A stretch of 32,000 bases of DNA from Candidatus Electronema aureum. GTDB taxonomy: Bacteria > Desulfobacterota > Desulfobulbia > Desulfobulbales > Desulfobulbaceae. The stretch covers positions 1 through 32,000 of the forward strand of contig NQJD01000004.1 of NCBI GenBank assembly GCA_004284765.1, read 5' to 3'. The notes below the pieces were generated by a model. The model did not search any database, was not told where the DNA came from, and saw nothing but the letters and a program-made list of their open reading frames with translations. Of this stretch, positions 3,326 to 30,601 are shown piece after piece; positions within the stretch are counted from its first letter, which is position 1, and every line of letters begins with the position of its first letter. The position numbers and the translations under genes are program-made.

Positions 3326-4486
3326 GTGACAATTTCAACCTGCGAGCAGTTCAGAGATGTCAGCGTCTTGATTACCGGGGCCACTGGCTTCACCGGCAGA
3401 GTGCTGACCAAAAAGTTGGCAGCGGCAGGAGCGCAAATTCGTGCGATTGCTCGCCCCACATCTCAACTCGGTGATTTAGCTGATCTCAACGTCACTTGGT
3501 TGAAAGGCGAAGTTTTTGATCCAGAAACCGTCCGCCGAGCCGCTGATGGTGTTGAGTACATTTTTCATATCGCTGCCGCCTATCGGCAGGAAAATGCGAC
3601 TGAGGAAGATTATCGCCGGGTGCATGTCTATTCTACCCAGCTCTTAGCCGAAGTCGTTAAAGATCAGACAAAATTTAAACGCTTTATCCATGTCTCCACC
3701 GTCGGGGTGCATGGCCATATTCCCGGTGATGACCTTGCCGACGAAACCTACCGCTTCAGTCCGGGCGACAGCTACCAGCGCACCAAGCTGGAGGCTGAAC
3801 AATGGCTGACCGATTTTGCTACCCGCAGCGGCATTCCGCACACGGTCATTCGTCCGGGCGCGATTCTCGGCCCCGGCGATGAGCGGCTGCTGAAAATTTT
3901 TAAGATGGTGCAGAACGGCTTTATTCTCATGCTCGGCAGCGGTAAAGGAATGTATCATCTTATCCATGTCGAAGACCTGACTGATATTCTCCTCGCTGCC
4001 GCTGTGTCGGACAAAGCACGTTCACAAGTGTTTATCGCTGCTAACGATGAACCGATTTCTATCATCGGCATGGGCAAAGTTATCGCCAAAACGTTACAGA
4101 AAAAAATTCGAGTTATCCGTTTGCCAATTTGGCCTTTCTTCCTTGCTGCCGACCTCTGTAAGGTCATCTGCACACCGCTGGGCATCCAGCCGCCTCTCTA
4201 TCGCCGCCGGGTAGCCTTTTACACCAAAGACCGCAAATTCAACAATACCAAGCTGAAGCAGTTGCTCGGTTATTCGTTCCGTTACAGCAATGAAAGCGGC
4301 TTGGCTGAAACTGCAAGGTGGTATAAGCAGCAGGGCTGGCTGGCTGGGTCTGCCGCCAAAAAACAACCGCTGCGTGAAATTTTTTACTGCAAATACATTA
4401 CAGATGGCCTTGTCTCCAGCCTCTCGCGGTATGTTGAACCTGCTATTGGCCCCGCCAGCGATTTTGTGGGCTTGTCCTTGCTGTAG
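3326..4486 (+). CDS. NAD-dependent epimerase/dehydratase (extended SDR family)
   Basis: GATGFTG Rossmann glycine motif at the N-terminus (VLITGATGFTGRVL) and a YQRTK catalytic YxxxK. GTG start at 3326, preceded by aaggaa. About 60 aa of C-terminal extension beyond a typical SDR. Confidence 0.85.
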   Translation: MTISTCEQFRDVSVLITGATGFTGRVLTKKLAAAGAQIRAIARPTSQLGDLADLNVTWLKGEVFDPETVRRAADGVEYIFHIAAAYRQENATEEDYRRVHVYSTQLLAEVVKDQTKFKRFIHVSTVGVHGHIPGDDLADETYRFSPGDSYQRTKLEAEQWLTDFATRSGIPHTVIRPGAILGPGDERLLKIFKMVQNGFILMLGSGKGMYHLIHVEDLTDILLAAAVSDKARSQVFIAANDEPISIIGMGKVIAKTLQKKIRVIRLPIWPFFLAADLCKVICTPLGIQPPLYRRRVAFYTKDRKFNNTKLKQLLGYSFRYSNESGLAETARWYKQQGWLAGSAAKKQPLREIFYCKYITDGLVSSLSRYVEPAIGPASDFVGLSLL

Positions 4487-5238: not shown

Positions 5239-6398
5239 AAATTCTCCTGCTTGCGCCACAGCCCTTTTTCCAAAACCGGGGTACGCCCATCGCCGTCCGC
5301 TTGCTGGCAGAGACTCTTGGCAAGGCAGGCCAAGAGGTGCATCTGCTGGTTTTTCATGAAGGCGAAGATCTTGCGATGCCCAACGTGACCTTGCACCGGA
5401 CTGCCGCCCTGCCCTTTCTCCGCGCTATTCCGCCCGGCTTTTCTTGGCAGAAAATCTGCTGCGACCTACTGATGACCGCAAAAGCGATCCAGATGCAGCG
5501 GCAGCTTGGCTTTGATCTGGTTCACGCGGTAGAGGAGTCGGTCTTCATTGCCATGCTCCTGCGACTGCTCTTCAAGGTGCCGTATATTTATGACTTGGAT
5601 TCATGGATGAGCGATCAGCTTATAGCCAAGCTCACCGTTCTCCGCCCCTTCCGTTCGTTGCTTGAATCTTTTGAAAAGGCGGCAGTGCGGCACAGTCTCG
5701 GTGTGGTGCCAGTTTGTCGGGCGATTGAGGACAAGATCAGGAGTTTTAACCGCGACAAGTCACTGCTTCGACTGGAGGACATCAGTCTGCTGGAAGAAGG
5801 CAACTTTTGTCAAAAGGAAGATGTGCGAACGTTGACCGGGTGCCAAGGCAAGATAGTGATGTATGTCGGCAACTTGGAAAGGTATCAAGGCATGACTCTG
5901 TTCCTTGAAGCCTTTACCTTAGCTGATCCTGCGGCCTTGGATTGCAGCTTGGTGATCATTGGCGGAGTTGCGAAGGATATTGCCTATTATACGGAAATGG
6001 CCCAGCAGCTTGGCATCAGCAAACGGGTTTTCTTCATTGGCCCCCGCCCGGCTTCCGCACTCGGTATGTACTTAACTCAGGCGGACTTACTGGTCTCGCC
6101 ACGCACCGAGGGCGAAAACACGCCGATGAAAATTTATTCCTACATGGATTCTGGCAAGCCGATTCTGGCCACCAAGATTGCCAGCCACACTCAAGTGCTG
6201 GATGAGAGCAACGCCTTTCTTGCTCTCCCAGAACCTGCGGCCTTGGCAGCGGAGCTGCGGCGTGTCCTTACAGACAACAGCGAGGCAAGCAAACGGGCAG
6301 CACAGGCTAAAGAGAAGGCGGCAGATTACAGTCGGCCAGCCTACGAACGAAAGATCAACAGGTTTTACAGCGAGCTGATGCAGGAGATGATAAGATGA
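5235..6398 (+). CDS. Glycosyltransferase, GT4/GT-B fold family
   Basis: N-terminus MKILLLAPQPFFQNRGTPIAV and a C-terminal EGENTPMKIYSYMDSGKPILAT (EX7E-like region), both typical of GT4 enzymes. The start overlaps the upstream stop (ATGA). Confidence 0.85.
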   Translation: MKILLLAPQPFFQNRGTPIAVRLLAETLGKAGQEVHLLVFHEGEDLAMPNVTLHRTAALPFLRAIPPGFSWQKICCDLLMTAKAIQMQRQLGFDLVHAVEESVFIAMLLRLLFKVPYIYDLDSWMSDQLIAKLTVLRPFRSLLESFEKAAVRHSLGVVPVCRAIEDKIRSFNRDKSLLRLEDISLLEEGNFCQKEDVRTLTGCQGKIVMYVGNLERYQGMTLFLEAFTLADPAALDCSLVIIGGVAKDIAYYTEMAQQLGISKRVFFIGPRPASALGMYLTQADLLVSPRTEGENTPMKIYSYMDSGKPILATKIASHTQVLDESNAFLALPEPAALAAELRRVLTDNSEASKRAAQAKEKAADYSRPAYERKINRFYSELMQEMIR

Positions 6399-7984
6399 AG
6401 AGGAATCCAGAGCGGGTTGCTGCAAGCCATTACGATCTTGTCGTTATCGGCGGCGGCATCAATGGCATTGCCACTGCCTATGAAGCAGCCACCCGGGGCC
6501 TAAAGACTTGCCTGCTGGAAGCCTCGGATTTCATGAGTCAGACTTCCTCTAATTCGCTCAAGATCATTCATGGCGGCTTTCGCTATCTCCAGCAGGCAAA
6601 TTTGAAAAGAATTCGTGAATCCAACTGCGAACGGCGTACGCTGCTGAAGATTGCACCTCATCTGGTGCATCCGCTGCAATGTGTCATGCCGACCGAATCT
6701 ATCTGGAATCTACGCAGCCTGCCTGGTCTGTTTGCAGCCAGTCTGATTAACGGCTTGATTTCCTTTGACCGCAGTAAAGGCCTGCCGACAGATAAACAGC
6801 TTCCGCTCGGCGGCATCATCTCGAAACAGAAGCTGATTGCGCTGCTGGGCAAGGAATTTGACCGGCCTTCTGTCACCGGCGCAGCTATCTGGCATGACGG
6901 CATGGCGGTCAACTCCGAACGGCTTGGCCTTGCCTTTCTTCATGCGGGAGCAAAATACGGGCTGGACGCGCTCAACTACTGCCCGGTCACTGGCTTTCAG
7001 CAGAAAAATGGCCATATCACCGACGTTCACGTGCGCGATGCAGTGTTGGGCGGCAGCTTCACCGTTTCGGCAGATTTTGTCATCAATGCCGCCGGAGCCT
7101 GGGCGGGCGGCCTGCTGAACTTACTGCCAACCCTGCCTAAGCGCGATTTTCCGCAGTGCCGGGTGATGAATCTTGTTACGAAAAGAACGCTTTTCCCGGG
7201 TAAGCAGGCGGTTGGTCTGTTTGATCATGATAGAGCTTTTTTCTTTGTGCCGTGGCGCGGATATTGGATGATCGGTACGGACGAAGCAGCATGGAAGGAC
7301 GAACCGGGGCAGTTACGGATTAGCGAGGAGGATATTGAACGGTTTCTTGGGCGGATCAACAAGGTCTATCCGGGACAACCCCTGCGCCGGGAGGACATCT
7401 GCCATGTGCATAAAGGCTTTGTGCCAGGCCGCTTCAAGCCAGACGGCGACTTTAAGCTGCTTGACCACCAGAAGAATGGCATTGACAATCTCATCTCCTT
7501 GCAGCCCGTTAAATACACCACGGCCAGAGATGTCGGTCAGAAGACGGTCGATTTTGTGCTGAGAAAGACGGGCAAGCCATTCCAAGCATCAAGAACGGCG
7601 GAAATGCCGCTTGAAGGTGGGGAGATGGAGAGCTTTGCTGCATTCTGTGCTCAGAATATGACAGAGATCGCGGATGCTGGTATCAGCCAGCAAGCAGCGC
7701 AGCATCTCCTTAACAATTACGGCTCTTCATACCGGAACGTGCTGAATCATACTGACCTACTGCGCTTACTGCCTGGTTCTGAGGAAGTGCTGGAGGCAGA
7801 AATTACCTATGCGGTCGAGGAGGAGATGGCGGTGCGATTGGACGACGTTGTGCGGCGGCGTACTGATCTTGGATCAGGAGAAAAACCATCTCAAGAATCC
7901 CTTGTCTGCTGTGCTGCACTGATGGGAAAAATGCTCGGTTGGAACAAAGAGCGGCAGGATGCTGAAATCTTGTCAATTCATTAA
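6395..7984 (+). CDS. FAD-dependent oxidoreductase, glycerol-3-phosphate dehydrogenase/oxidase (GlpD/GlpO)-like
   Basis: YDLVVIGGGINGIATAYEAATRGLKTCLLEASDF...SSNSLKIIHGGFRYL closely parallels the GlpD N-terminal FAD-binding region. The 529-aa length fits GlpD with its C-terminal domain. The start overlaps the upstream stop (ATGA). Confidence 0.8.
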   Translation: MKRNPERVAASHYDLVVIGGGINGIATAYEAATRGLKTCLLEASDFMSQTSSNSLKIIHGGFRYLQQANLKRIRESNCERRTLLKIAPHLVHPLQCVMPTESIWNLRSLPGLFAASLINGLISFDRSKGLPTDKQLPLGGIISKQKLIALLGKEFDRPSVTGAAIWHDGMAVNSERLGLAFLHAGAKYGLDALNYCPVTGFQQKNGHITDVHVRDAVLGGSFTVSADFVINAAGAWAGGLLNLLPTLPKRDFPQCRVMNLVTKRTLFPGKQAVGLFDHDRAFFFVPWRGYWMIGTDEAAWKDEPGQLRISEEDIERFLGRINKVYPGQPLRREDICHVHKGFVPGRFKPDGDFKLLDHQKNGIDNLISLQPVKYTTARDVGQKTVDFVLRKTGKPFQASRTAEMPLEGGEMESFAAFCAQNMTEIADAGISQQAAQHLLNNYGSSYRNVLNHTDLLRLLPGSEEVLEAEITYAVEEEMAVRLDDVVRRRTDLGSGEKPSQESLVCCAALMGKMLGWNKERQDAEILSIH

Positions 7985-8115: not shown

Positions 8116-10809
8116 GTGGATACAGTTACTGTTATCAGCGTAATCGTCGGTGGCATCTTAGCCGCATGGATTTTCGAGGATTCAGCGGGTTGGTTGACCG
8201 GAATGCTGCTTGGCTTTCTATTGGCAAAGCATTTCACCCAAAAGCGAACGCTGGTTCAGATAGAAAAACGACTACAGGAGGTTGAAGACCTGATTGAGGA
8301 GATACCGGAGGAAGAAGAACCAAAAATATCTTCTGTCATTAACACAGTCCAAGAGGAAAACAAACCAACCGGGTCTATTCATCCAGTTTTTTTCGCGCCA
8401 GAACCTCCGTCTTCTCCACTTCCTTCCAAAAGCATTGGCGGCAAAAAGGAAGCACCGCCAGAGCCAGCCGTTACGGAAAACGCTTTTTTTAGCAAACTCA
8501 GCGAGTTATTCACTCAAGGTAACGTTGTCCTCCGCGTCGGCCTGCTGGTGCTTTTTTTCGGCGTGGCCTTCCTGCTCAAATACGCTGCTGACCGCAACGT
8601 CATCCCGATTGAGCTGCGGCTGTTCACCGTGGCAATGGGCGGGCTGGCTCTGCTCGGTTTTGGCTGGCTCCAGCGGCAGGCGCGGCCCGGCTTTGCGCTG
8701 CTGGTGCAAGGAGGCGGCATCGGCATCATGTATCTGACTGTCTTCGCGGCCTTCAAGCTCTATCATCTGGTGCCGACACCGCTGGCGTTCGGCCTGATGC
8801 TGGGATTGGTCGCCGCCTCCACGGCCCTCGCTCTGCTGCAAGACTCCAGCCCGCTGGCCCTGTTCGGCGCGGCAGGCGGATTTCTTGCGCCGGTGCTGCT
8901 CTCCACCGGCAGCGGCAATCATGTCGCCCTGTTCAGCTACTACGCCCTGCTCAATTCAGGCATTCTGGCTGTGTCGTGGTTCAAGGCGTGGCGCAGCCTG
9001 AACCTGCTCGGCTTTGTCTTCATCCTCGGCATCGGCGCGGCCTGGGGCCTGAACAGCTACCAGCCAGAGCTTTTCGCCACCGCCGAGCCGTTCCTGATTC
9101 TCTTTTTCCTGATGTTCAACGCCATCGGCGTGCTCTTCGCCTTCCGCCAGCCGCCGAACCTGCGCGGCTATGTGGACGGCACCCTTGTTTTCGGCACGCC
9201 GGTGGTCTGCTTCTCGCTGCAAGCGGGGATGGTGCAGGACATGCCGCACGGCCTCGCCTACAGCGCGCTGGCCATGAGCCTGTTTTACGTCGTGCTGGCG
9301 ACCTTTCTCTGGAACAAAGGCGATGAGCGGCTGCGGCAGGGAATGCGCACCATGACTGAAGCCTTCCTCGCGCTCGGCGTGGTCTTTGTCACTTTGGCCG
9401 TGCCGCTGGCTCTGAGCGGACGCTGGACTGCCGTCACTTGGGCGATGGAAGGCGCGGCTTTGATCTGGGTGGGCATTCGGCAAAACCGCGTCCTTGCCCG
9501 TAGCACTGGCTTTCTGCTTCAGTTCGGAGCAGGATTTTTCTTCCTCGCTGATCTCGGCTATCACGGCGCAGGTGCCGCCCCGCTGCCGCTGCTCAACGGC
9601 ACGTGGCTTGGTTCCGCGATCATTGCCGTGTCCGCGCTCTTCTCCTCGTGGCAGCTTTATAAGGCGGACAATCTCCGCCGCTGGGAGCAATGGAATCATC
9701 TGCCGCTCTTCTTCTGGGGCGGCCTCTGGTGGTTCTGCGCCGGCATGAACGAGATTCCATACGGAGATAACAATGTTAGGGATCACGCCATGTTGCTTTT
9801 CAATGCCCTGAGCTGTGCTGTCATGGCCAGACTGGCTGTGAGGCTGAACTGGCCGCCCGCCGCTTGGCCCAGCCTGTGTCTGCCGTTGTTCATGCTCATC
9901 GTCATGCAGTCCAATCTGAACTGGAAATATATTTATCCATGGAACGGTCATCTATTTGGCGGCATAGGCGTGGCCGCTTGGCCGCTTGCTTTTATGCTGC
10001 TTTATCATTGCCTGCGGAAGGCGCACGGCCTTTTAAAAGAACACTGCTTGCGTCTGACGCATGGCAGCGGTTTTTTACTGCTGACTTTGACTGTTATCAT
10101 GGAGGCTCTTTGGCACCTGCGCCGTTTGACTGGCGGCGCAGGCGTATGGGACGACATAGCCTGGGGCCTGATTCCGACGGGCATGGTCTTGCTGGCGCAC
10201 AGCCGCCGCTTGGAAGCGCACTGGCCGCTGGCCGATTATGCCGCCGTGTATCAGCGGCAGGCTTCGGCGGTGCTGGCTTTCTTCATGTGGCTCTGGCTGC
10301 TGGCGGGCTACTTCGGCAGCGCAGGCGATGCGCCGCCGCTGCCCTTCATTCCTGTCGTCAATCCGCTGGAGCTGAGTCAGCTTGCGGTCATGCTCCTGCT
10401 CGTCTGGTGGACAATGCGGCATCATGCGCGCGCTGAATTCGCGGCGATGCTTGCAGTTGTCGGCGCGGGAACGGTTTTCCTTTGGCTTAACACGGCCTTG
10501 GCCCGCGCGGTGCATCATTTCGCGGCTGTGCCTTTTGATGCGGACGCGATGCTGGACTCCCGCCTCTATCAGACCTCGCTGGCCATCCTCTGGGCCTTGC
10601 TCTCGCTGGCCCTGATGCGCCGCCAAAGCCGGACGCTCTGGTTCGCGGGCTGCGTCCTGATCGGTGCCACGGTGCTGAAACTCTTCCTGATTGATCTGGC
10701 CAACAGCGGCGCGGCGGAGCGCATCGTTTCCTTCATCTCTGTCGGCCTCTTAGTCATTGCGATCAGCTACTTCTCGCCCTTGCCGCCCAAGAAGGAGGAA
10801 GCTCCATGA
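8116..10809 (+). CDS. Large polytopic membrane protein, DUF2339-like
   Basis: 897 aa. One N-terminal TM segment, an acidic and Pro-rich linker (EEIPEEEEPK...PPSSPLP), then more than 20 hydrophobic segments. GTG start at 8116 with aaaggag 5 nt upstream. The DUF2339 label is from memory of the architecture and of the adjacent DUF3999-type partner. Confidence 0.75.
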   Translation: MDTVTVISVIVGGILAAWIFEDSAGWLTGMLLGFLLAKHFTQKRTLVQIEKRLQEVEDLIEEIPEEEEPKISSVINTVQEENKPTGSIHPVFFAPEPPSSPLPSKSIGGKKEAPPEPAVTENAFFSKLSELFTQGNVVLRVGLLVLFFGVAFLLKYAADRNVIPIELRLFTVAMGGLALLGFGWLQRQARPGFALLVQGGGIGIMYLTVFAAFKLYHLVPTPLAFGLMLGLVAASTALALLQDSSPLALFGAAGGFLAPVLLSTGSGNHVALFSYYALLNSGILAVSWFKAWRSLNLLGFVFILGIGAAWGLNSYQPELFATAEPFLILFFLMFNAIGVLFAFRQPPNLRGYVDGTLVFGTPVVCFSLQAGMVQDMPHGLAYSALAMSLFYVVLATFLWNKGDERLRQGMRTMTEAFLALGVVFVTLAVPLALSGRWTAVTWAMEGAALIWVGIRQNRVLARSTGFLLQFGAGFFFLADLGYHGAGAAPLPLLNGTWLGSAIIAVSALFSSWQLYKADNLRRWEQWNHLPLFFWGGLWWFCAGMNEIPYGDNNVRDHAMLLFNALSCAVMARLAVRLNWPPAAWPSLCLPLFMLIVMQSNLNWKYIYPWNGHLFGGIGVAAWPLAFMLLYHCLRKAHGLLKEHCLRLTHGSGFLLLTLTVIMEALWHLRRLTGGAGVWDDIAWGLIPTGMVLLAHSRRLEAHWPLADYAAVYQRQASAVLAFFMWLWLLAGYFGSAGDAPPLPFIPVVNPLELSQLAVMLLLVWWTMRHHARAEFAAMLAVVGAGTVFLWLNTALARAVHHFAAVPFDADAMLDSRLYQTSLAILWALLSLALMRRQSRTLWFAGCVLIGATVLKLFLIDLANSGAAERIVSFISVGLLVIAISYFSPLPPKKEEAP

Positions 10810-12155
10810 ACCGTCTGCTCATTCTCTTGATTCTGCTGGCCACGCCGCCCTGTTGGGCCAAGGATGAGCCGCAGCCGCTGCGGCTGGAGGATTTCGCCTA
10901 CGGCATGGAGTTGAAGGTGAGCGGCGGCAGTCCGGTGGTCAGTCTGAGCCTGCCTGCTGAAGTGTACAAGGGCTGCGTCCGGCCTGATCTCGGCGACCTG
11001 CGGGTTTTCAACGCGCAGGGCCCGGTGCCGCATCTGCTCCGCCAGCCGCAGCCAGAGCAGAAGGAGAACCCTGCGCAAGAACTGCCGTTTTTTCCGCTTT
11101 CCGCTCCTGCTGGAGCTAACCGGGCGGCGGATTTCGGCATTGCCATCGGCGGCAACGGCACACTCATCGCCATCAGCGCAGGCGGGGCAGAAAAGGCAGT
11201 CCAAACCGTCACCGCCTATCTTATTGACATCTCTGCATTGCAGCACCGCCCGAACTGGCTAGACTTTGCTTGGCAAGGGCAGTTCTCCGCTTCGGTGCAG
11301 TTAGACAGTAGCGATGATCTGAATAGCTGGCAGCCTGTGACCTCAGCGGCTTTAGCTGAACTGAGTTTCGGCGGCCACAAGCTCCTACGCAACAGGATTG
11401 ACCTGAACCAAGCTGCAACAGGCAAATATTTGCGCCTGTCATGGTCGCCGGGCAAAGACGGCATCAGCCTAAGCGCGGTTAAAGCTGGGTACGAGAGCGA
11501 GACCCGGACGCAGCCGCGCACCCTGCTGACATTAGTCGGGCAGCCGGATGCAGCGGCGGCAGGTCATGCTGCTTGGTTCTACATGACCGATGGCTTTTTT
11601 CCAATTGATCAGCTTAATATCCGCCTGCCGGAGCAGAACTCGCTGGCGGAATTTGCTGTATTTTCAAGGGCAGATGAAAAAGCGGCTTGGCAGCAACGGG
11701 CTTCTTTGCTGGCTTGGCGGCTGACTGTGAACGGCGTGAATTTGGAAAATGGGCTGCTTCATCTTGCCCCGAATGCTGACCGTTATTGGCGGTTAGAAAT
11801 CGAAGGCAACGGCAGCCAGGTGCCAAAATTGGAACTGGGCTGGCTGCCGGGCCAGTTAATTTTCATGGCACAGGGCGAGGGGCCGTACAGTCTGGTCTAT
11901 GGTCGAGCCGGACTGCTGCCTGCGCACTCTCAGGTGGCGCAGCTCATCAAGGCCGTAGAACCAGTGAGCGGCAGCAAGCTGATTGAGGCTGCCAAAGCCG
12001 GTGCGCAGACTGTGCTGGCAGGCCAAACCGCGTTAGCGCCGAAGACGGAACTGCCTTGGCGCATCTGGCTGCTCTGGGCTGGACTGATCGCTGGTGTGCT
12101 GGCCGTGGGGGCGATGGCCTTGAAGCTGTTCAAGGAGATGAATAGCACTCGGTGA
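10806..12155 (+). CDS. Secreted, C-terminally anchored protein, DUF3999-like
   Basis: 449 aa with a signal peptide (MNRLLILLILLATPPCWAKD) and a single C-terminal TM segment (IWLLWAGLIAGVLAVGAMAL). The ATG overlaps the stop of the upstream gene (ATGA at 10806-10809). The family label is from memory of the conserved DUF2339/DUF3999 pairing. Confidence 0.7.
   Translation: MNRLLILLILLATPPCWAKDEPQPLRLEDFAYGMELKVSGGSPVVSLSLPAEVYKGCVRPDLGDLRVFNAQGPVPHLLRQPQPEQKENPAQELPFFPLSAPAGANRAADFGIAIGGNGTLIAISAGGAEKAVQTVTAYLIDISALQHRPNWLDFAWQGQFSASVQLDSSDDLNSWQPVTSAALAELSFGGHKLLRNRIDLNQAATGKYLRLSWSPGKDGISLSAVKAGYESETRTQPRTLLTLVGQPDAAAAGHAAWFYMTDGFFPIDQLNIRLPEQNSLAEFAVFSRADEKAAWQQRASLLAWRLTVNGVNLENGLLHLAPNADRYWRLEIEGNGSQVPKLELGWLPGQLIFMAQGEGPYSLVYGRAGLLPAHSQVAQLIKAVEPVSGSKLIEAAKAGAQTVLAGQTALAPKTELPWRIWLLWAGLIAGVLAVGAMALKLFKEMNSTR
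12104..12143 (+). repeat. Direct repeat copy 1 (attL-like); forms the functional 3' end of the DUF3999-like gene
   Basis: cgtgggggcgatggccttgaagctgttcaaggagatgaat matches 14652-14691 at 36 of 40 positions by hand alignment. Confidence 0.8.
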
Positions 12156-12371
12156 ACGGGCTTTATCGATTTTGTTTTGCAGAGGAATATTGCATTTTTT
12201 CTTCCTATCATTCGGTAGTTGGTATATATTGCACACCGATGCGTCACAATGGTATCGTGGCGTTCGCTTCGTTTCTGTCTTGCACCTCAGCGCGAAGTAC
12301 CGAAGACATTAAAATCTGAGTCAGACTTAACGGTCGATCTGTTATATTTCAACATACACCATTATATTGAT

Positions 12372-12857
12372 ATGAATAATCTTGTTATAGGAGAAAATTT
12401 AGAAATAGCCCCACATCTTCGAGCTATGTTACAGCACTCTTTTGATTCTCTCCAGAAATTACTAACGCCTGATGAGATGGAACGACTATCAGAACACGTT
12501 CGCAAAGTACAAGCAATTAATAATTATAACTATATACTTAAAATATCATCAAAAATTCAAGAGGCAAGACTTTTACACTTCGAAGAAAAAATACGGCAAA
12601 AAACTACGCAAAATTTAAATAAAATGTTTTTTTCATATAAAAAAGAACGTTCCAATATGCTATTGGATTTTGTAAAGCATTTAGATGCATGTAGATCAGA
12701 ATCTGATAAGTTGAAATATAATCCTTTTAAAAAGAATTTTGAAAAAACATTGGAAAAAACATTGGAAAAAACATTGGAAAACTTCATGGAGTATTTGAAC
12801 ACTATGGATAAAAATTTCGAGCGCGAATTCAGTAATCGGATTAAATTATTAATATAA
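12372..12857 (+). CDS. Hypothetical small alpha-helical protein carried by the island, with an (EKTL)3 repeat
   Basis: AT-rich ORF; the track ORF is 12219-12857. I placed the start at the ATG at 12372 (MNNLVIGENLEI) because the upstream part of the ORF runs through the GC-rich to AT-rich transition. No clear SD, so the start is uncertain. I recognise no family. Confidence 0.5.
   Translation: MNNLVIGENLEIAPHLRAMLQHSFDSLQKLLTPDEMERLSEHVRKVQAINNYNYILKISSKIQEARLLHFEEKIRQKTTQNLNKMFFSYKKERSNMLLDFVKHLDACRSESDKLKYNPFKKNFEKTLEKTLEKTLENFMEYLNTMDKNFEREFSNRIKLLI
12741..12782 (+). repeat. 12-bp tandem repeat gaaaaaacattg, about 3.5 copies, coding EKTLEKTLEKTLE
   Basis: Read directly: units at 12741-12752, 12753-12764 and 12765-12776, plus a partial unit. 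Confidence 0.9.
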
Positions 12858-12870
12858 TTAAAGACAAGTT

Positions 12871-14463
12871 ATGAAATTTTTCCTTCAAAGAATTGAACGA
12901 TCTCTTATTTATATTGCAGGATTTGACATAAATATATTAGAATCGCATCTAAAAGGATCGGGAAGGTCAGAAAAAATTAGGTTAGCTCAATTGGGTGCAA
13001 CGTTATTTGTCCCAGCAATAATTAGCGTTTTTTCTTTTCCTTATTTTTTATCTGCCGCAATTAATAATTTATTTATCATAATCATTTCTTCTTTTTTCTA
13101 TGCAATATCAATATTTTTATTAGACCGGTACTTTACTCTATCTTTCAGGAGGCATTCAAATCTACGATCTATTTGGGCAGTATCATGGAGGATGATAATT
13201 GCTATTTGTATAGGATTCGCTGTAACAGAGCCTTTAATAATTGCAATTTTTGCAAAAAGTATTAACAAGGAATTGACAGAACAGATTGATCGAGAAAAAT
13301 CAAACAAAGACAGTCCATTACAACAAAAGAAACAGCTACTTGAGACTAATATTGAGAAAACAAATAAGGAAATATCTGAGTTGCGAAATGCACTTACATC
13401 TGCGCGATCGCGTGTATCGCAGATAGATAGTGAAATTCAAAAATTATCTGAACAAGGCAACGCTGAAAAAAATCAGAAAAACGAAAAAATAAGCACGTTA
13501 GTTACATCAACAGAGCAAGAAATCAAAAAACTTCAATCACAGCTTGAAAGCTTGGAACAACAAATTTCAGATATAACGAAGAAAATTGCTTCTGAGCGTA
13601 TTGGAGCAGGAGATACTAAAAGGAAGGGATTTGGCACAGAGGCCAAACGCTTAACCACCGAAAAAAACAACTTGGTTTCCCAAAAAGCTACTGCAACTTC
13701 GGAGCTTAACCAGCTCAAGCGTGAACTGGAGAAACTTAAACGTACATTGTCTCAGTCAATACTACTTACTGAAAATCCTAATAAGTCTAAAATAGAAACA
13801 CTTTCTACGGAAAGAGCCAACCGTGTATTAAATCCAGTGCAGTACGCGCCAACTCAAGAAATTCGTGAAATAGAGTCACAAATAGACATAAGAAAAAAAT
13901 CTGTCGCTGAGTCTCTAAAAGAACTACAGTTTGTTAACCAACAGATTCAACAATTGACCGGAAATATAACTTTGACCGATCGCGATGATCCACTTGCTCG
14001 TTCATCAGCATTGTGGAGTATTCTGATAAAAAGTAAAAATCCTTTGGCATGGGCAATGTTTGGCTCCATAATTATATTGTTTATGGCTCTTGACACATTC
14101 CCTATAATAACAAAATTATCTTTCAAAGCACCAGCCGATGAAATATTGAAAAATATAGAAGAAGAAGATGTGGAATTTTTCACAAGCATGAAGGTACAAA
14201 AAATACTTTTAAGTGATTTTATTGAAGAAAACGCTTTTCGTGATATTGTAAACACTGGGAAAAATAGATCTGATTTGATAGTGGAATTGGCTATGAAATT
14301 TGGCTCAGACATTGAAAAAATCAATGATTCAAAATATGAAAAAAAAGAAATAATGATTGACGCCTTGGAAAAACACTTTAACTTTGTAATTTCAAAGATA
14401 GATCAATACCACCTAAGAGATACAAGTGGTAACACGGAATGTTCTGACGAGAATATATGTTGA
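12871..14463 (+). CDS. Membrane-anchored coiled-coil protein, DUF4407-like
   Basis: 530 aa. The N-terminus (IYIAGFDINILE...LAQLGATLFVPAII) and the layout resemble DUF4407 as I remember it. The layout is three TM segments (about aa 41-128), a heptad-rich Q/E/K coiled coil of about 240 aa (about nt 13255-13980), a fourth TM segment (about aa 385-410), then a C-terminal domain of about 120 aa. AT-rich codon usage differs from the flanking genes. Confidence 0.7.
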   Translation: MKFFLQRIERSLIYIAGFDINILESHLKGSGRSEKIRLAQLGATLFVPAIISVFSFPYFLSAAINNLFIIIISSFFYAISIFLLDRYFTLSFRRHSNLRSIWAVSWRMIIAICIGFAVTEPLIIAIFAKSINKELTEQIDREKSNKDSPLQQKKQLLETNIEKTNKEISELRNALTSARSRVSQIDSEIQKLSEQGNAEKNQKNEKISTLVTSTEQEIKKLQSQLESLEQQISDITKKIASERIGAGDTKRKGFGTEAKRLTTEKNNLVSQKATATSELNQLKRELEKLKRTLSQSILLTENPNKSKIETLSTERANRVLNPVQYAPTQEIREIESQIDIRKKSVAESLKELQFVNQQIQQLTGNITLTDRDDPLARSSALWSILIKSKNPLAWAMFGSIIILFMALDTFPIITKLSFKAPADEILKNIEEEDVEFFTSMKVQKILLSDFIEENAFRDIVNTGKNRSDLIVELAMKFGSDIEKINDSKYEKKEIMIDALEKHFNFVISKIDQYHLRDTSGNTECSDENIC

Positions 14464-14651
14464 TATATGCGGTATTTTTTATTTGCAATAGATCATCAGC
14501 TATATCATTTTGTAAAAGCTGAAACCGATGGCAGATTAGCTTGACGTACCAAACACTTTCATTTTTTCCACCACCTTCCTTCTGTGGCCGCCAATACAGC
14601 ATTCAGCCAACCAAATGAACGATCAACGATTTCTGGCCAATGTGAATTAGT

Positions 14652-14691
14652 CGTGAGAGCGATGGCCTTGAAGCTGTTCAGGGAGATGGAT
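14652..14691 (+). repeat. Direct repeat copy 2 (attR-like); displaced relic 3' end of the DUF3999-like gene
   Basis: cgtgagagcgatggccttgaagctgttcagggagatggat. In the frame equivalent to copy 1 it reads RAMALKLFREMD, followed by TAG at 14692-14694. Confidence 0.8.
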
Positions 14692-14695
14692 TAGG

Positions 14696-15376
14696 ACCTA
14701 ATGTGCAACTCTTTTAAACTTGATTAGACAGCAATCAGTCCATCCAGATGAAGCGGAGGGTGATTACAGGTCAAGTTAATGAAAACACAGACCGTATGCG
14801 CCAATATTTTACGAATCAGACGGTGCTGAAAATGCCAAAGATCGTGTACGCGGATATGGTCTGTTTTTGAAACGTCTTGTTAAATGGGAGCCTGCCGGTG
14901 TAGTGCATATCTTTAGCTGCGCAGTATCCAAAATCAGCCGCTGCCGGAAAACAACGGTCTCGTTTGGCTCTAGTGCGGACACAAACAGGCAATGGAAATG
15001 TATCAATTATTTGGACGGGATCGTTGAGTTGTTAAGCGTTGTTGAACAGCCGCTTTGACTTGCCATAAATTCGCAGCTTGGCGGACAAACAAAGACCTGT
15101 CATGGAGCTTCGGAAAAGAGTGCCGATAATGCGCATGAAAGTATGCAAAGATATCCTTGTCGCATTCGAGTTTGAAATACTCGCCGCAGATTTCTATGGT
15201 GATGACTTCTTCATCTGTTAAGGCAAGCTCAAAGCCGCCCCACCGCAGTCAGTATTGTTGTTTGATGACACTGTATTGCTCGCAAACAAGCAGATTTGTG
15301 AATAGGGATTAGATACCGCTATGCTACAGGATGCACCCAATGGATCGGGTATTTTTTTAAGAGTTGCACATTAGGT
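14696..15376 (-). mobile_element. Decayed insertion sequence (IS982/IS4-IS5-like DDE type) with intact 18-bp terminal inverted repeats
   Basis: acctaatgtgcaactctt at 14696-14713 is the exact reverse complement of aagagttgcacattaggt at 15359-15376. Transposase-like reading frames lie between them. At 681 bp the element is too short for a complete IS of this type. Confidence 0.8.
14819..15308 (-). pseudogene. DDE transposase pseudogene with an in-frame stop, a frameshift and a 3' truncation
   Basis: Minus-strand translation gives three pieces. First, SLFTNLLVCEQYSVIKQQY, ending at a TGA (15249-15251). Second, LRWGGFELALTDEEVITIEICGEYFKLECDKDIFAYFHAHYRHSFPKLHDRSLFVRQAANLWQVKAAVQQRL, ending at a TGA (15003-15005). 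Third, in another frame, IDTFPLPVCVRTRAKRDRCFPAAADFGYCAAKDMHY. These motifs are typical of IS982-type DDE_Tnp_1 transposase N-terminal halves. Only the first catalytic D region remains. Confidence 0.75.
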
Positions 15377-15561: not shown

Positions 15562-15587
15562 GTCCGCCTCAAGAATGAGAGGCGGAC
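15562..15587 (-). terminator. GC-rich hairpin downstream of sppA; putative intrinsic terminator
   Basis: gtccgcctc (15562-15570) pairs with gaggcggac (15579-15587) around an 8-nt loop, 14 nt after the sppA stop. The minus-strand tail AGUCUUCU is only partly U-rich. A weaker plus-strand hairpin, ctgca-att-tgcag followed by T6, lies at 15535-15553. Confidence 0.5.
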
Positions 15588-17576: not shown

Positions 17577-17936
17577 TCAGTCCAAGTATTTACGCACCGC
17601 TGCTTTTAAGTCTGCGGTGTTAGCTGATTTTACGATGTACTCGTCCGAAGCCCATGCCCCAAAATCTTGCTTGTATTCAGGATAAGCAGAACTAAGGATG
17701 ACCGGCAGTGAAGCGTTGATGCTCTTCATCTGGCGCAGCACTTCAATACCGTTCATGCCCGGCATGTTGATGTCGAGAATGACCAAGTCCGGCGGCGCAG
17801 CCTCAAATTGCCGCAGAGCCAATTCTCCGTTCATGGCCGTTTCCACAGCAAAGCCCTCCTCTTCCAGCTCTTCTTTGTAGAGGAACAGGATGACTTCCTC
17901 ATCATCAACGATCAGAACTTTTTTTTTGCTTTCCAC
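17577..17936 (-). CDS. Single-domain response regulator (CheY-like receiver)
   Basis: KVLIVDDEE, LVILDINMPGMNG and SSAYP receiver motifs. I trimmed the start to the GTG at 17936, because AGGAGG lies 5 nt upstream and immediately follows the galT-like TAA (17950-17952). Confidence 0.85.
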   Translation of the reverse strand: MESKKKVLIVDDEEVILFLYKEELEEEGFAVETAMNGELALRQFEAAPPDLVILDINMPGMNGIEVLRQMKSINASLPVILSSAYPEYKQDFGAWASDEYIVKSANTADLKAAVRKYLD

Positions 17937-17949
17937 GGCAGCCTCCTGT

Positions 17950-18951
17950 TTACAATTGCATGTCACGGAGATAACGGCAGGCATCTTCCGGCGGCATGGG
18001 GTTGATGTAAAAGCCGGTACCCCACTCAAAACCGGCGATGCTCGTCAGCTTGGGCACAATTTCAAAATGCCAGTGATAATGTTCCAATGGTCTGGAACGG
18101 AGCGGCTGAGTATGCAGGATAAAGTTGTAGGGAATGCCGGGGATGCAGGTATCCAGCCGTCGCAGGGTCTCGGAAAAAATATGGGCCAAGTCAGAAAGCG
18201 AAGCCTCATCCTGCTCAATATAGGAGGAATTGTGCTTCTTTGGCAGCACCCACATCTCGAAAGGAGTGCGCGGGGCAAAGGGAGTCAGGGTGACAAAGCG
18301 GCTGTTTTCGCAAACTAAACGCACTTTCTGCTGCACCTCCTGCCGGATGATGTCGCAGAACACGCAGCGGTCTTTGTAACTGTAGTATTGCCTGCTCCCT
18401 TCCAACTCCGAAACCAGCATTCTCGGCATTACCGGCAAAGCAACGAGCTGAGAATGGGAATGCTCTAGTGAGGCTCCGGCGGCTTTACCATTGTTTTTGA
18501 ACACCATGACATAAGTAAAGCGCTCATCTTTGGACAGATCGGCTATGCGCTCTTTGAAGGCCCGGAAGGTGAGCAGCATTTGGTCATGGGGCAGGAAGCT
18601 GAAACTGGCCGCATGATCCGGGCTTTCAATCACCACCTCGTGAGCACCGATGCCGTTCATGCGGTCATACAGCCCCTCGCCCTGCTTGTCTAGCTCGCCT
18701 TCGATGACCAAAGCCGGATATTTGTTCGGCACCACGCGCAATTGCCAACCTGGCGAATTCGGCGGCATACCATAACCACGGCCATAGACTAACACTTCCG
18801 GCGGCGTAGTTCGCTCATTTTCTGGGCAGAGTGGGCAAAAACCGCCCTGTGACTCATGGCAATCGACCACAAAATCTGAGGGTCGCTTACTCCGCTCCAT
18901 AGCGATGATAATCCAACGTCCAAGGATCGGGTCTTTCCGCAGCTCAGGCAT
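17950..18951 (-). CDS. galT: Galactose-1-phosphate uridylyltransferase-like HIT-family nucleotidyltransferase
   Basis: MPELRKDPILGRWIIIA N-terminus, a CPLCPENE zinc motif and the HSHSQ (HxHxQ) active-site motif. This is the short (333 aa) form common in anaerobes. The true substrate could differ, for example an ADP-glucose phosphorylase type. Confidence 0.8.
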   Translation of the reverse strand: MPELRKDPILGRWIIIAMERSKRPSDFVVDCHESQGGFCPLCPENERTTPPEVLVYGRGYGMPPNSPGWQLRVVPNKYPALVIEGELDKQGEGLYDRMNGIGAHEVVIESPDHAASFSFLPHDQMLLTFRAFKERIADLSKDERFTYVMVFKNNGKAAGASLEHSHSQLVALPVMPRMLVSELEGSRQYYSYKDRCVFCDIIRQEVQQKVRLVCENSRFVTLTPFAPRTPFEMWVLPKKHNSSYIEQDEASLSDLAHIFSETLRRLDTCIPGIPYNFILHTQPLRSRPLEHYHWHFEIVPKLTSIAGFEWGTGFYINPMPPEDACRYLRDMQL

Positions 18952-18957
18952 TTTTTG

Positions 18958-19320
18958 TCATCTTCCTATATTTCTTTCCCGCTGCTCCTGCTTAATTTTG
19001 CAGTCAATGCAATGGGTTGCGACCGGCCTCGCCTCCAGCCGCTTGATACCAATCTCTTCCTCACATTCCTCGCAGATACCGTAGGTACCGCTGTCAATTC
19101 GGGTAATAGCTTGGTTGATTTTGTCCAAGAGCTGCTGCTCCCTGCCACGCAGGCGTAGCTCAAAGCTGCGATCAGATTCCAGCGTAGCCCGATCGGTGAT
19201 GTCCGGGGTGTTGAACTGATGATCAGTCATCTCGGAAATCGTCTGTTCAACATCGGAGACGATCTCGCTCTTCATATCTTCAAGCAATACTCTGAATTTC
19301 TGCAATTGTTCGCTGTTCAT
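18958..19320 (-). CDS. dksA: DksA/TraR-family C4 zinc-finger protein
   Basis: 120 aa with a coiled-coil N-terminal half and [26 protein letters not shown] (CxxC-N17-CxxC). The ATG overlaps the moaC stop (ATGA). Confidence 0.85.
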
Positions 19321-19829
19321 GGTCTCTTGGTCTCGGTGTTCCGGTCGTCACTTTCTGCTGGGCGGCTGAAATCACCGCTCCTGCCGCCGCTTTTTTTCAT
19401 CAATCGGATTTGAGAAATTTCCATTCCCTTATCCACAGCTTTGCACATGTCGTAAATTGTCAGGGCGGCCACGGAAACTGCGGTCAACGCCTCCATTTCC
19501 ACTCCAGTTTTGCCGGTGATGCGGACAGATGCCTCAATGCGGATGCTGTGCCGTTCGTCATCAAAAAAGAAAGTCACTTCTGCCCCGCTGATTGCCAAAG
19601 GATGACAGAGTGGAATTAAGGCGGAAGTCTGCTTGGTCGCCATGATTCCAGCTATACGGGCCACACCCAGCACGTCACCCTTTTTCATTGCCCCAGCTTT
19701 GACCATTTCATAGGCTACCGGAAGCAGTGAAATCTGGCCTTCCGCGACCGCAACCCGCTCGGTCTCCGCCTTGGCTCCCACATCGACCATCCAAGCCTGG
19801 CCTGCCTCGTCAAAATGGCTGAACTGCAT
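19317..19829 (-). CDS. moaC: Cyclic pyranopterin monophosphate synthase MoaC
   Basis: [57 protein letters not shown] and [23 protein letters not shown] are MoaC hallmarks. Confidence 0.93.
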
Positions 19830-28120: not shown

Positions 28121-29152
28121 TTACCATGTCCGTTCTCCTTTGATCTTTTGTTTCAGCGCGGCAATCCGCGCCAAAGAAGCCTTGAGGCGATTTTCATCAA
28201 TCAGGCCGCGTTTCAGCAGCTCCTGAACAGCCGCTATTCCTTCAGTCAGCGCATTTGGGCTGCGGACTAAGTTATTCCCCACGATCAGTAAATCAGCACC
28301 GGCGAGTACCGCCTGCTGCACAGCTTCGCGAAATCCGCAGCGGTTGCTGATTGCCTTCATTTGAAGATCATCAGTGATGATCACTCCGTCAAAGCCCAGT
28401 CGCTCACGCAATAGTTCCGTGACCACCGCAGGCGAGAGACTCGCAGGCTGTCTCTTCGCATCCAAGCCGCAGTGTATCACATGGGCAGTCATCACCGCAT
28501 CAGCAAAGCCTGCTTTTATTACGATTTTATACGGCTCCAACTCCTGTTCCTGCCAATCATTGGTGATATCAACAAAACCGAGATGTGTGTCGCCGCTTGC
28601 ACTGCCGTGGCCAGGAAAATGCTTGAGACAACAGGCAATTCCGTGCTGGTGATGGGCTTTGATAAAAGCTAAACAGTGGGCAGCGACCTGCCCCGCTTCG
28701 CTGCTGAAGCTGCGTCCGTAGCGGGCAATAATCGGACTGGATAGGTTCAAGTTTAAATCCGCTACTGGCGCGAGATTCAGATTAATACCGTACTCTGCCA
28801 ACGTGGTCGCCATTGCCTCAGCAGCAAGCGTGGTTGACTGTTCTGGATACTTTCTACCCAGTTCTTCTGCCGTAAAGCTGGTAGGAAAACCGTCTCGCGC
28901 CTTCAATCTGCATACTTTTCCACCTTCTTGATCAACCGCAACAAGCAGTAATTCTGGAGAAAGCTCTTGCAGCTGGGCAGTCAATTCTTTCAGTTGGGCG
29001 GGTGAGCTGAAGTTTTGCACAGAGCCGTCAACATTGCGGTCGAAGAGGATCACTCCGCCGGGCAAACCTTGCTCAAGAGCTGCGGTCAGCCAATGGTTGC
29101 GATCAAGGCCACAACCGTCAAAGCCAACGAGAAACATCTGGCCGATATTCAT
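28121..29152 (-). CDS. nagZ: Beta-N-acetylhexosaminidase, glycoside hydrolase family 3 (NagZ-like)
   Basis: GQMFLVGFDG, VDQEGGKVCRL, KHFPGHGSASGDTH and VIITDDLQM motifs; 343 aa. Confidence 0.88.
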   Translation of the reverse strand: MNIGQMFLVGFDGCGLDRNHWLTAALEQGLPGGVILFDRNVDGSVQNFSSPAQLKELTAQLQELSPELLLVAVDQEGGKVCRLKARDGFPTSFTAEELGRKYPEQSTTLAAEAMATTLAEYGINLNLAPVADLNLNLSSPIIARYGRSFSSEAGQVAAHCLAFIKAHHQHGIACCLKHFPGHGSASGDTHLGFVDITNDWQEQELEPYKIVIKAGFADAVMTAHVIHCGLDAKRQPASLSPAVVTELLRERLGFDGVIITDDLQMKAISNRCGFREAVQQAVLAGADLLIVGNNLVRSPNALTEGIAAVQELLKRGLIDENRLKASLARIAALKQKIKGERTW

Positions 29153-29412
29153 GAGAAGTTATTGAAAAATAAAGATAACACGTCAGCGTGAACGATCGAT
29201 CCAGTTTTCCAACTGTAATTCTATCAATGCGCGCAAATTCTTTGATCGCTGATAAAAACTTTCGCTGTTGTTTTTTTCATACGCATTTCCTGGGTAATAC
29301 TGAACTGTGTGAAGATATATATATAATATATATACCAAATAGTGCAATTTGTCAAACATCCTTACGTGCTACAGCAACAATACGCTGTATAAAAACTACT
29401 CGTTTCAGATTG

Positions 29413-29437
29413 AAACTGAGTAATAAATACTCAGTTT
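29413..29437. promoter_or_regulatory. Perfect 10-bp inverted repeat AAACTGAGTA-N5-TACTCAGTTT; candidate upstream activator or operator site
   Basis: Read directly in the 560-bp AT-rich divergent intergenic region. It lies about 117-140 bp upstream of the sigma54-like element at 29554. Confidence 0.3.
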
Positions 29438-29553
29438 GTATGGAACGAGAAACGTTCTCATTGTCAATTAGAATTAATATAATTGAAATATATTAATAAA
29501 AACAATATATTATCTGTATAGGTATCACAAAAACAATATTTACCAAAAAAACA

Positions 29554-29567
29554 GGTACAGTTTTCGC
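29554..29567 (+). promoter_or_regulatory. Possible sigma54 -24/-12 promoter element
   Basis: GGTACAGTTTTCGC has the GG-N10-GC spacing of the TGGCAC-N5-TTGC consensus. It departs from the core consensus at two positions (T for C in the -24 element, C for T in the -12 element). It lies about 147 nt upstream of the ATG at 29714. Confidence 0.3.
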
Positions 29568-29713
29568 ATAGAAGGACGGGCAGGCAAAGCAACCGGCCTG
29601 TCCTATCATCTTACTGCGGAAAAAATCTCTGACGTTTTTCCAGCACATTTTACAAATGAAAGGCGCAACAGCAGCCTTTTCACGCTTAATACTCTTTTTG
29701 GAGAAAAGAAACC

Positions 29714-30601
29714 ATGAAGCATCAACCTGCATCAAAACGCTTTTTTTATCTACTGACAGCGGCGATGACGCTGTTTTGCTCAGAAGTATCAGCAAATGCT
29801 TCTGCTCAGGATGTCAATGAGCTTGATGACATTTGCATGTACTCGCAGCGCATTCTTAAAGATTACGCCCTGATTGGCATGGGTGTGACCTATCATGATC
29901 CCAAGAAAGATATCGACGAGAACATCAAGACGATCGATAAGTACTTCAAGGATATCGAAAGTCACAAATTGAATGAGAAGTTAAAAGCTGAGGTAGTTGA
30001 GGTTGAAAAATCTTGGAATGAGATCAAACCAGAATTCCAGAATGCCCCTGACAAGGCAAAAATGAGCGAGTTGCGCAAGAAGGTTGAGGCATATACCGTT
30101 CGCTGCGAGCAGGTTGCTGAAGATTTGGCTAAAGACACTGGCATCAAGGGCGAGCATGATGTAGTGCTGGTTGCAGAACTTGGTTTGGAATCACAACGTT
30201 TAGCTGCTCTGTATCTGATGAAAGCGTGGGGTGTTGCTGATGCCAACTACGAGCAGGAAGTAACGCAGACTGTCGATGAGACCGAAAGAATCTACAAAGA
30301 GTTGCTGGCAGCTGATGACAAGCTCGTTTCTAAAGAAATCAAAGAAAAGCTGAAAACGACTGAAAATGATTTTATTGCCTTCGGGGTGATGGCAAAAAGC
30401 AAATCAGGTCGTTTCATGCCTTCGGCAGCTGAGGAAAACGCCAGCAAGATTTTTGAAGCACTGCGGGAAATCTTGGCTATGGAGAAAAAATTAGTTGAAG
30501 GCAATGTTTCAGGATATTTCATTCCTGTAGCGGGCGAAAAGGCCATTCTTTTCGATAAATTCACCGTAATCTTGCAGGCAAAGGAGGAGGAGACAGTATG
30601 A
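29714..30601 (+). CDS. Secreted all-alpha protein with two internal PilJ/NarX-type four-helix-bundle-like repeats
   Basis: Signal peptide MKHQPASKRFFYLLTAAMTLFCSEVSANASA. Internal repeat signatures SQRILKDYALIGMGV and SQRLAALYLMKAWGV. No TM segment or output domain. A ggag sits upstream of the ATG. Confidence 0.7.
   Translation: MKHQPASKRFFYLLTAAMTLFCSEVSANASAQDVNELDDICMYSQRILKDYALIGMGVTYHDPKKDIDENIKTIDKYFKDIESHKLNEKLKAEVVEVEKSWNEIKPEFQNAPDKAKMSELRKKVEAYTVRCEQVAEDLAKDTGIKGEHDVVLVAELGLESQRLAALYLMKAWGVADANYEQEVTQTVDETERIYKELLAADDKLVSKEIKEKLKTTENDFIAFGVMAKSKSGRFMPSAAEENASKIFEALREILAMEKKLVEGNVSGYFIPVAGEKAILFDKFTVILQAKEEETV

Follow-up and report, generated by a model that had tools for sequence, protein, structure and literature searches.

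The stretch of Candidatus Electronema aureum DNA analysed here, the first 32,000 nucleotides (nt) of contig NQJD01000004.1 (assembly GCA_004284765.1) and hereafter the window, contains a gene for a DUF3999 family membrane protein, the product of which matches protein P0001 of this freshwater cable bacterium with 100% identity. The 3′ end of this gene runs into the first of two 40-nt direct repeats, between which lie 2508 nt of AT-rich DNA carrying two genes, and the last codons and stop that follow the first repeat copy (12144-12155, AGC ACT CGG TGA) belong to the inserted DNA, while a second version of the gene end is found beyond the insert (Table 1). The composition of the DNA between the repeats is foreign to its surroundings. 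It has a GC content of 33.7%, compared with 51.6% in the rest of the window, and no other 2.5-kb stretch of the window deviates as strongly in tetranucleotide usage (0.52, the median being 0.22). An initial annotation, made from the letters of the sequence, had already judged this DNA to be of foreign composition, and the two hand counts that it offered (0.30 GC at 12541-12600 and 0.65 at 10501-10560) proved to be exact.

The two repeat copies match at 36 of their 40 positions (90%) and are spaced 2548 nt apart, as established by a repeat search and a scripted count, which agree with the hand alignment in the initial annotation. The perfect 22-nt core that they share has exactly two matches in the window, even when three mismatches are allowed, and two core matches were reached in none of 100 shuffles. 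The suggestion that the motif might be a dispersed repeat unrelated to the gene end thus finds no support within the window, where there are just these two copies. Local alignment and an anchored extension test both confined the homology of the copies to the 40 nt, on either side; an extension upstream of copy 2 that had been suggested by MAFFT was ruled out by the anchored test. So sharp an end would be expected of an att-type core rather than of a longer duplication of the gene. An independent Logan assembly of SRR14559659, which is 100% contained in the window, crosses both copies, demonstrating that the arrangement of repeat and insert is not an artefact of assembly. The repeat, which lies inside a coding region, bears no resemblance on inspection to the consensus of the 28-nt dif-like sites that flank Xer-dependent integrative elements (IMEX).

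Table 1. Features of the DUF3999 gene end and of the DNA inserted there (window coordinates).
Feature	Position	Strand	Details
Target gene, DUF3999 family membrane protein, 449 aa	10806-12155	+	Pfam PF13163, E 3.3e-104
Direct repeat copy 1, attL-like	12104-12143	+	encodes working C-terminus ...GAMALKLFKEMN
Perfect 22-nt core, presumed crossover zone	12111-12132	+	equals 14659-14680
Dyad CCTTGAA-GCTG-TTCAAGG	12118-12135		7-nt arms, 4-nt asymmetric spacer; copy 2 equivalent 14666-14683
Left non-coding flank of insert	12156-12371		40% GC
Cargo gene 1, 161 aa, predicted helical, no family	12372-12857	+	ATG at 12372; start chosen by gene callers 12249
Cargo gene 2, 530 aa, DUF4407	12871-14463	+	Pfam PF14362, E 6.4e-40
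Right non-coding flank of insert	14464-14651		39% GC
Direct repeat copy 2, attR-like	14652-14691	+	probable displaced original gene end, reads ...RAMALKLFREMD
TAG stop codon of displaced gene end	14692-14694	+	

In the frame of the DUF3999 gene, copy 1 reads ...AVGAMALKLFKEMNSTR followed by a stop (the working gene end being given also as ...AMALKLFKEMNSTR and stop), and copy 2 in the equivalent frame reads VVRAMALKLFREMD and stop, that is ...AMALKLFREMD and then the TAG. The gene end is therefore duplicated, with one copy serving as the working C-terminus, exactly as the initial annotation had read it. The repeat occupies the most conserved stretch of the DUF3999 gene end, where nucleotide identity across Electronema species amounts to 89-97%. 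In the closest Electronema orthologues (P0002-P0016, and most of P0002-P0025) the corresponding residues are ...(F/W)REM..., where copy 1 has K. As the proteins of four other Electronema species, which are without the insert, end in ...FREM... like copy 2, copy 2 together with the TAG is probably the original end of the gene, in line with what the initial annotation had proposed. The individual codons divide between the copies. On the 5′ side copy 1 has GTG GGG GC, the state of all the orthologues; copy 2 has GTG AGA, which is present in no orthologue and places an arginine within the hydrophobic, presumably membrane-spanning, segment VLAVGAMAL. On the 3′ side the relatives have CGG, which a single change separates from the AGG (Arg) of copy 2 and two changes from the AAG of copy 1.

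The relatives also show the gene without the insert. Four other Electronema species (L001, L002, L007 and L008) carry the motif once and lack the cargo, and past the DUF3999 stop they continue in ordinary DNA of native composition; a situation in which all relatives carry both genes at this position, which the initial annotation had considered, is thus not what is found. It should be emphasized, however, that these four loci are no true empty sites, since protein identity does not exceed 79% and the DUF2339-DUF3999 gene pair is differently flanked in every species. A scan of a genome collection for the DUF3999 protein returned species that are at most 73% identical and have other neighbours; the nearest DUF3999 relative is 79% identical, and the host protein stands alone in its cluster at 90% identity. 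When metagenome and viral collections were scanned with a degenerate 27-nt pattern of the repeat, no match was obtained.

Within the repeat is a dyad that is perfect only in copy 1; in copy 2 it has a single mismatch, and in the L002 orthologue two. Dyads with arms of 7 nt or more turned up in 0.5% of shuffles and, among 40-nt windows taken from neighbouring genes, in 1.4% (p about 0.005-0.014). Integrative elements typically target the most conserved stretches of their host genes. The position of the repeat on such a stretch, together with the dyad, argues for a site-specific enzyme rather than RecA.

We favour a reading, to which we assign a probability of roughly 45%, in which the 2508-nt foreign islet arrived by Campbell-type, recombinase-mediated insertion, the recombinase now being gone or encoded elsewhere. 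Foreign DNA between short repeats of host sequence, one of which rebuilds the gene, makes an attL/attR origin plausible. One reciprocal crossover would have taken place between the 3′ end of the DUF3999 gene and a look-alike site of about 40 nt on a circular donor. Copy 1 would then consist of the host 5′ side and the donor 3′ side, with the substitute tail KEMNSTR and its stop, and copy 2 of the donor 5′ side and the host 3′ side, with the displaced original end REMD and its stop. The crossover itself may be placed inside the 22-nt identical core, whose dyad is typical of recombinase core sites, and the perfect right arm of the dyad would be that of the donor, as expected of an element's own site. 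The recombinase may have been lost with the remainder of a larger element, leaving a remnant comparable to the cis-mobilizable elements (CIMEs), or it may have acted in trans. Such a chimera model fits because it is the 5′ side of copy 1 and the 3′ side of copy 2 that match the orthologues. For the unoccupied site it predicts the sequence CGTGGGGGCGATGGCCTTGAAGCTGTTCAGGGAGATGGATTAG, and the deviations from it would lie at positions 30 and 38 in copy 1 and at positions 5 and 7 in copy 2. The circularity of the donor, the site-specific catalysis and the choice of which copy is ancestral are what we infer here from the sequences. A polarised distribution of the mismatches was also considered as evidence of a crossover and was ruled out (p = 0.17).

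Direct repeats of host sequence flanking an insert could also be the product of a transposition-like insertion that duplicated a target of about 40 nt, the copies of which subsequently diverged by four substitutions, and the pattern of mismatches is indeed compatible with random decay. Such an origin appears very unlikely. The insert lacks both a transposase and terminal inverted repeats just within the direct repeats (none at the insert ends, 12144 and 14651), and a divergence of 10% implies an old event, yet the insert still has a GC content of 34%. The non-ancestral K is in copy 1 and not in copy 2, and a simple duplication cannot give the chimera pattern. A target duplication of 40 nt would be, to our knowledge, far longer than any that a known transposase makes.

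The insert itself consists of two cargo genes and their non-coding flanks. Searches of its open reading frames and of protein families detected no recombinase, relaxase or transposase domain in the two genes, in keeping with the initial annotation, in which they were described as uncharacterised and the insert as lacking an integrase, transposase or recombinase. Cargo gene 1 has no Pfam, PADLOC, NCBIfam or PHROG family above threshold. Cargo gene 2 matches PF14362 with 137.7 bits, above the gathering cut-off of 31.3, and its AlphaFold2 model, of low confidence (pLDDT 66), is all-helical, with N-terminal helices, a central coiled coil of about 200 residues, another helix and a helical tail; the hydrophobic helices at the termini may span the membrane. 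A fold search of solved structures with this model returned coiled-coil matches only. Similarly, against the PADLOC defence models the cargo proteins gave only coiled-coil-type matches over the helical stretch (LmuB, 4e-8; JetC; ZorA, 0.003), no toxin or immunity family was found among the cargo, and a search of the literature on DUF4407 returned nothing. In the left flank (12156-12371) there is no convincing promoter on the + strand, the promoter and terminator scans being at chance level.

Some further features of cargo gene 1 were observed. A 12-nt tandem repeat at 12730-12777 encodes EKTL three times, and the Logan contig stops just past it, at 12795. Two units of the repeat are present in P0121, a 96% relative of the cargo gene 1 product; its gene overlaps the start of gene 2, and its C-terminus differs (...RIKYINIIKDKL), a deviation that may stem from a 1-nt indel. 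The two short contigs that encode P0121 (ERR15459707 and ERR12035931) both begin exactly 121 nt upstream of the long gene-1 open reading frame, which corresponds to window position about 12128, in the dyad spacer of repeat copy 1. These contig starts could represent a branch of the assembly graph at the repeat, such as would result from occupied and empty alleles in one sample.

To what extent the cargo occurs elsewhere was explored by an exhaustive search with cargo gene 2 of 1.84 billion cluster representatives, which stand for about 15 billion proteins. The close relatives were P0122-P0125 only, comprising two full-length proteins (39% and 37% identity) and two fragments, one of which is 96% identical. 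Directly 5′ of both full-length relatives lies a homologue of gene 1 (at locus L009, E 5e-10, and at locus L010, E 5e-9), and thus gene 1 and the DUF4407 gene constitute a conserved two-gene module; more distant DUF4407 genes are solitary, without the partner gene. Counting that of the window there are three full-length copies of the module in the searched representatives. No further copies of the cargo were found by alignment-based locus scans of metagenome and viral collections, nor in phage and plasmid collections by tblastn, the plasmids being searched also by blastn. The module is therefore rare but recurrent, and in each of the three copies it forms a low-GC islet, with no recombinase inside the islet at L009 or L010.

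The settings of the other two copies differ. At L009 (GCA_016919605.1) a module of 35% GC lies in a contig of 55-58% GC, with phage tail tube, tail and baseplate genes on one side and a 5′-truncated higB-like remnant with a higA-like gene on the other. A 41-nt imperfect direct repeat (6376-6416 and 6916-6956, 88%), with an internal stem in each copy, brackets the higB-like remnant and the higA-like gene on this contig, and at the other edge of the module there is a G-rich, low-complexity tract (about 3950-4010). At L010, a metagenome contig from ENA, the module has a GC content of about 50%, against 60-69%, and is situated between direct repeats of 47 nt that are 89% identical (8717-8763 and 12042-12088). 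These 47 nt belong to a longer unit of about 145 nt, in which they are best conserved, and of this unit there are at least three copies in direct orientation (7255-7400, 8699-8845 and 12024-12165) as well as a partial one (12805-12872). The units separate unrelated genes, with the DUF4407 module filling one slot, and TniA/TniB-like genes and an insertion sequence (IS) transposase of the DDE type lie 6-9 kb upstream of the array. The same contig has a tandem array with a 21/42-nt period at 12071-12658, open in several frames on both strands, which leaves the coding strand ambiguous; translated from the + strand, the array weakly matches a family of antifreeze beta-roll repeats. A 930-nt Logan contig (L012, from SRR12445281) contains a piece of the module that is 96% identical at the nucleotide level, covering the end of gene 1 and the first 750 nt of gene 2. 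The piece is truncated, has a nonsense mutation and lies between unrelated flanks; it is a decayed copy in another sample. Because the two other full copies ride in different vehicles, the module looks like a passive, promiscuous cargo rather than a unit with an att site of its own.

The array at L010 brings into consideration an undescribed trans-acting system that inserts recombinase-less cassettes at conserved host sequences and leaves direct repeats of 40-150 nt. The pair of small protein and DUF4407 protein would in that case be cargo or marker, and repeated use of a site would build arrays like that of L010, amounting to an integron-like capture of genes, without attC hairpins, in cable bacteria and in other environmental lineages. 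It would explain why the L010 module occupies one slot in a series of three or more direct repeats, each about 145 nt long, that separate unrelated genes, and why repeats of 40-47 nt, about 90% identical, enclose two of the three module copies, with no recombinase inside. We nevertheless regard such a system as improbable. The window has just two repeat copies, and they are host coding sequence that is conserved in species without the insert; the L009 copy has no flanking repeat; and in L010 ordinary vehicles are at hand in the TniA/TniB-like genes and the IS transposase. Shuffled sequences fold at least as well as the L010 repeats, whichever strand is taken, and attC-like folding of the repeats was thereby ruled out. 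An att sequence common to the window and L010 was likewise rejected: the pairwise similarity of the repeats is marginal (p about 0.005, with eight tests), the repeats are unrelated in the profile search, and L009 lacks such a sequence. The link between the window and L010 is thus weak.

The occurrence of the module elsewhere bears also on the proposal that the AT-rich genes are native to the locus and that the second copy of the motif is a chance match or a dispersed repeat. This proposal is effectively refuted. A repeat of this kind appeared in none of the 100 shuffles and has two copies only in the window, the composition and tetranucleotide usage of the insert are the most deviant in the window, four related species are without the genes at this position, and the module is a low-GC islet in unrelated genomes.

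A more serious rival arises from the history of the host genes. When 8116-12155 was compared with L001, L002, L007 and L008, blocks of identity were seen to switch at about 10750-10800 from resembling L007 to resembling L001/L002, and then to revert. Positions 10369-10750 are 91-96% identical to L007 and 72-87% to L001/L002, positions 10757-10950 are 91-94% identical to L001/L002 and 73-76% to L007, and the rest of the DUF3999 gene is 77-85% identical to L007. In alignment, then, the locus suggests frequent recombination between species, or mobility of the DUF2339-DUF3999 pair itself. Because the locus is a mosaic, a homology-driven origin of the insert is a live alternative. Linear DNA from a related cable bacterium, in which the module already followed DUF3999, would have recombined homologously within the gene pair, and the far end would have been joined illegitimately about 33-40 nt before the resident stop, without any site-specific recombinase; copy 1 would be wholly of the donor and copy 2 wholly of the resident.

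In favour of such an import are the clear mosaic of the pair, with its 91-96% blocks that switch partner, the GC content of the pair (59% overall, range 59-63%), which resembles the 59-61% of the relatives rather than the 52% of the window, and the neighbours of the pair, which differ in every species. The divergence of 6-10% between repeat copies is within the range seen between species at this stretch, and a recombinase is unnecessary, which matches its absence. Set against this, the import shifts the question to the donor, in which the module must somehow have reached a position right after the stop, and the two other full copies of the module with readable flanks are not beside DUF3999. 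The resident copy would read V-R-A in the hydrophobic stretch unless the junction was at 14659, and a junction there would make five of seven matches at the left edge coincidental (p about 0.01-0.02). The perfect dyad of copy 1 would be a coincidence as well, and no change of closest relative is seen in the last 300 nt of the gene. As the import postpones the question of origin, finds no module beside DUF3999 elsewhere, and leaves the dyad and the five of seven matches to coincidence, we rate it below the attL/attR reading and consider it possible but doubtful.

Insertion by a single crossover has weaknesses of its own, and the following points weigh against it. A perfect run of 22 nt is expected by chance 17% of the time when there are four mismatches, and the perfect core is therefore not evidence in itself. 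The argument from ancestral states comprises three informative positions only. No empty site was found among the relatives, and no attP junction or recombinase in reach. The module at L009 is without a flanking repeat, no repeat sequence is common to the three copies, and a profile of the L010 repeat misses the window, which indicates that no common att site travels with the module. Finally, the mosaic structure of the host pair between species shows this very locus to be one at which foreign DNA is exchanged by homologous recombination. The initial annotation had called the arrangement a classic attL/attR footprint. As a description of its shape this holds; as a demonstrated mechanism it does not, given that no attP, integrase or empty site was found and that the locus is a mosaic.

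Comparison with known systems places the islet in familiar company. Phage 21 and the element e14 integrate in the 3′ end of the protein-coding gene icd of Escherichia coli and bring a substitute end. The window islet similarly replaces the last codons with a slightly altered version, and the original end has been moved to the far junction; in contrast to the islet, which is without phage genes or integrase, phage 21 and e14 have an integrase beside the att site and extend over tens of kilobases. In the displacement of rhs and cdiA tips, which is driven by homology in a conserved stretch, the new 3′ tip encodes a toxin domain with an immunity gene behind it, and the earlier tips are left downstream as orphans. 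The resemblance lies in a GC-rich gene that passes into AT-rich acquired DNA from its last codons onwards, with an orphaned older end downstream (14652-14694). The islet differs in having a tip of seven residues, no toxin domain or immunity gene, and a cargo of two separate genes. Integron cassettes are likewise small, recombinase-less, compositionally foreign units of one or two genes, and the L010 unit stands in an array separated by repeats. However, insertion of an integron cassette duplicates only a short core site (about 7 nt), and there is no attC hairpin here, an imperfect inverted repeat with RYYYAAC / GTTRRRY core sites: the window repeat is conserved DUF3999 coding sequence, the L010 repeats show no attC-like folding, and no IntI with its attI was found in the window or among the called genes of L009 and L010. 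Unlike an IS or a transposon, the insert has neither terminal inverted repeats nor a transposase, and the IS-like remnant nearby is outside the repeat.

The closest parallels are decayed or dependent elements. CIMEs are a described class of recombinase-less, att-flanked elements (PMC5704250), and like the streptococcal CIMEs and decayed integrative elements the islet has attL/attR-type repeats at the 3′ end of a protein gene and no genes for integration or transfer (PMC5704250). It departs from them in that it has no known parent, integrative and conjugative or integrative and mobilizable, at the same site, the role of its repeats as recombinase substrates is putative, and it is far smaller than typical CIMEs, with 2.5 kb and two genes. 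The ssrA islands of Dehalococcoides are comparable in using the conserved 3′ end of a gene and in being bordered by end repeats; an integration module is present in 16 of 31 (PMC3146451), about half thus being without one, and cargo and integration parts have discordant histories (PMC3146451), a further likeness. In contrast to the islet, these islands target an RNA gene, are about 12 kb in size and have integrase-bearing relatives in the same genomes. Overall, the islet fits this familiar decayed or hitch-hiking class better than it does a new mechanism.

The surroundings of the islet are unremarkable for the most part. Upstream of it are genes for DXP synthase, sugar-nucleotide enzymes and glycosyltransferases, and an FAD oxidoreductase, followed by DUF2339 and DUF3999; downstream, on the opposite strand, are SppA, the reverse-strand reading frames at 17577-19829, and then DnaJ, PurA and others, the remaining genes of the window being housekeeping genes. 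No recombinase was detected elsewhere in the window in a search that left out the reading frames at 17577-19829, and the window contains no tRNA, tmRNA or Rfam family as a possible target. For the exact SppA protein of the window no database record was found.

Immediately outside the islet, beginning 1 nt past the displaced TAG, is a 681-nt IS-like remnant (14696-15376, - strand) with 23-nt inverted repeats that are 91% complementary. Its transposase-like reading frames on the minus strand are frameshifted and ridden with stops, it has no Pfam family, and there is no obvious target duplication. The Logan contig breaks at 14722, inside the left arm of the element, which is therefore probably multicopy. 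Just past the SppA stop at 15601, and facing the old DUF3999 end, a GC-rich hairpin at 15562-15587 (GTCCGCCTC ... GAGGCGGAC) looks like a terminator for two convergent genes, judging by its sequence. A second low-GC stretch (29150-29714, 33-38% GC) is intergenic and is flanked by a glycoside hydrolase family 3 gene (- strand) and a weakly PilJ-like gene (+ strand).

Recombinase-less, att-flanked remnants have been described before, and the islet leaves the current understanding of them unchanged. Two by-products of the analysis are modestly interesting, the rare but recurrent two-gene module with DUF4407 and the recombination-prone DUF2339-DUF3999 locus of the cable bacteria. The low-GC islets formed by the DUF4407 module mark a mobile accessory function, for which phage exclusion is a candidate role. 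If the attL/attR reading is true, the conserved last codons of DUF3999 would be an integration hot spot in the cable bacteria, which are uncultured and hard to manipulate, and the 18-nt dyad would be a candidate recombinase site to look for, and perhaps to use, in these genomes.

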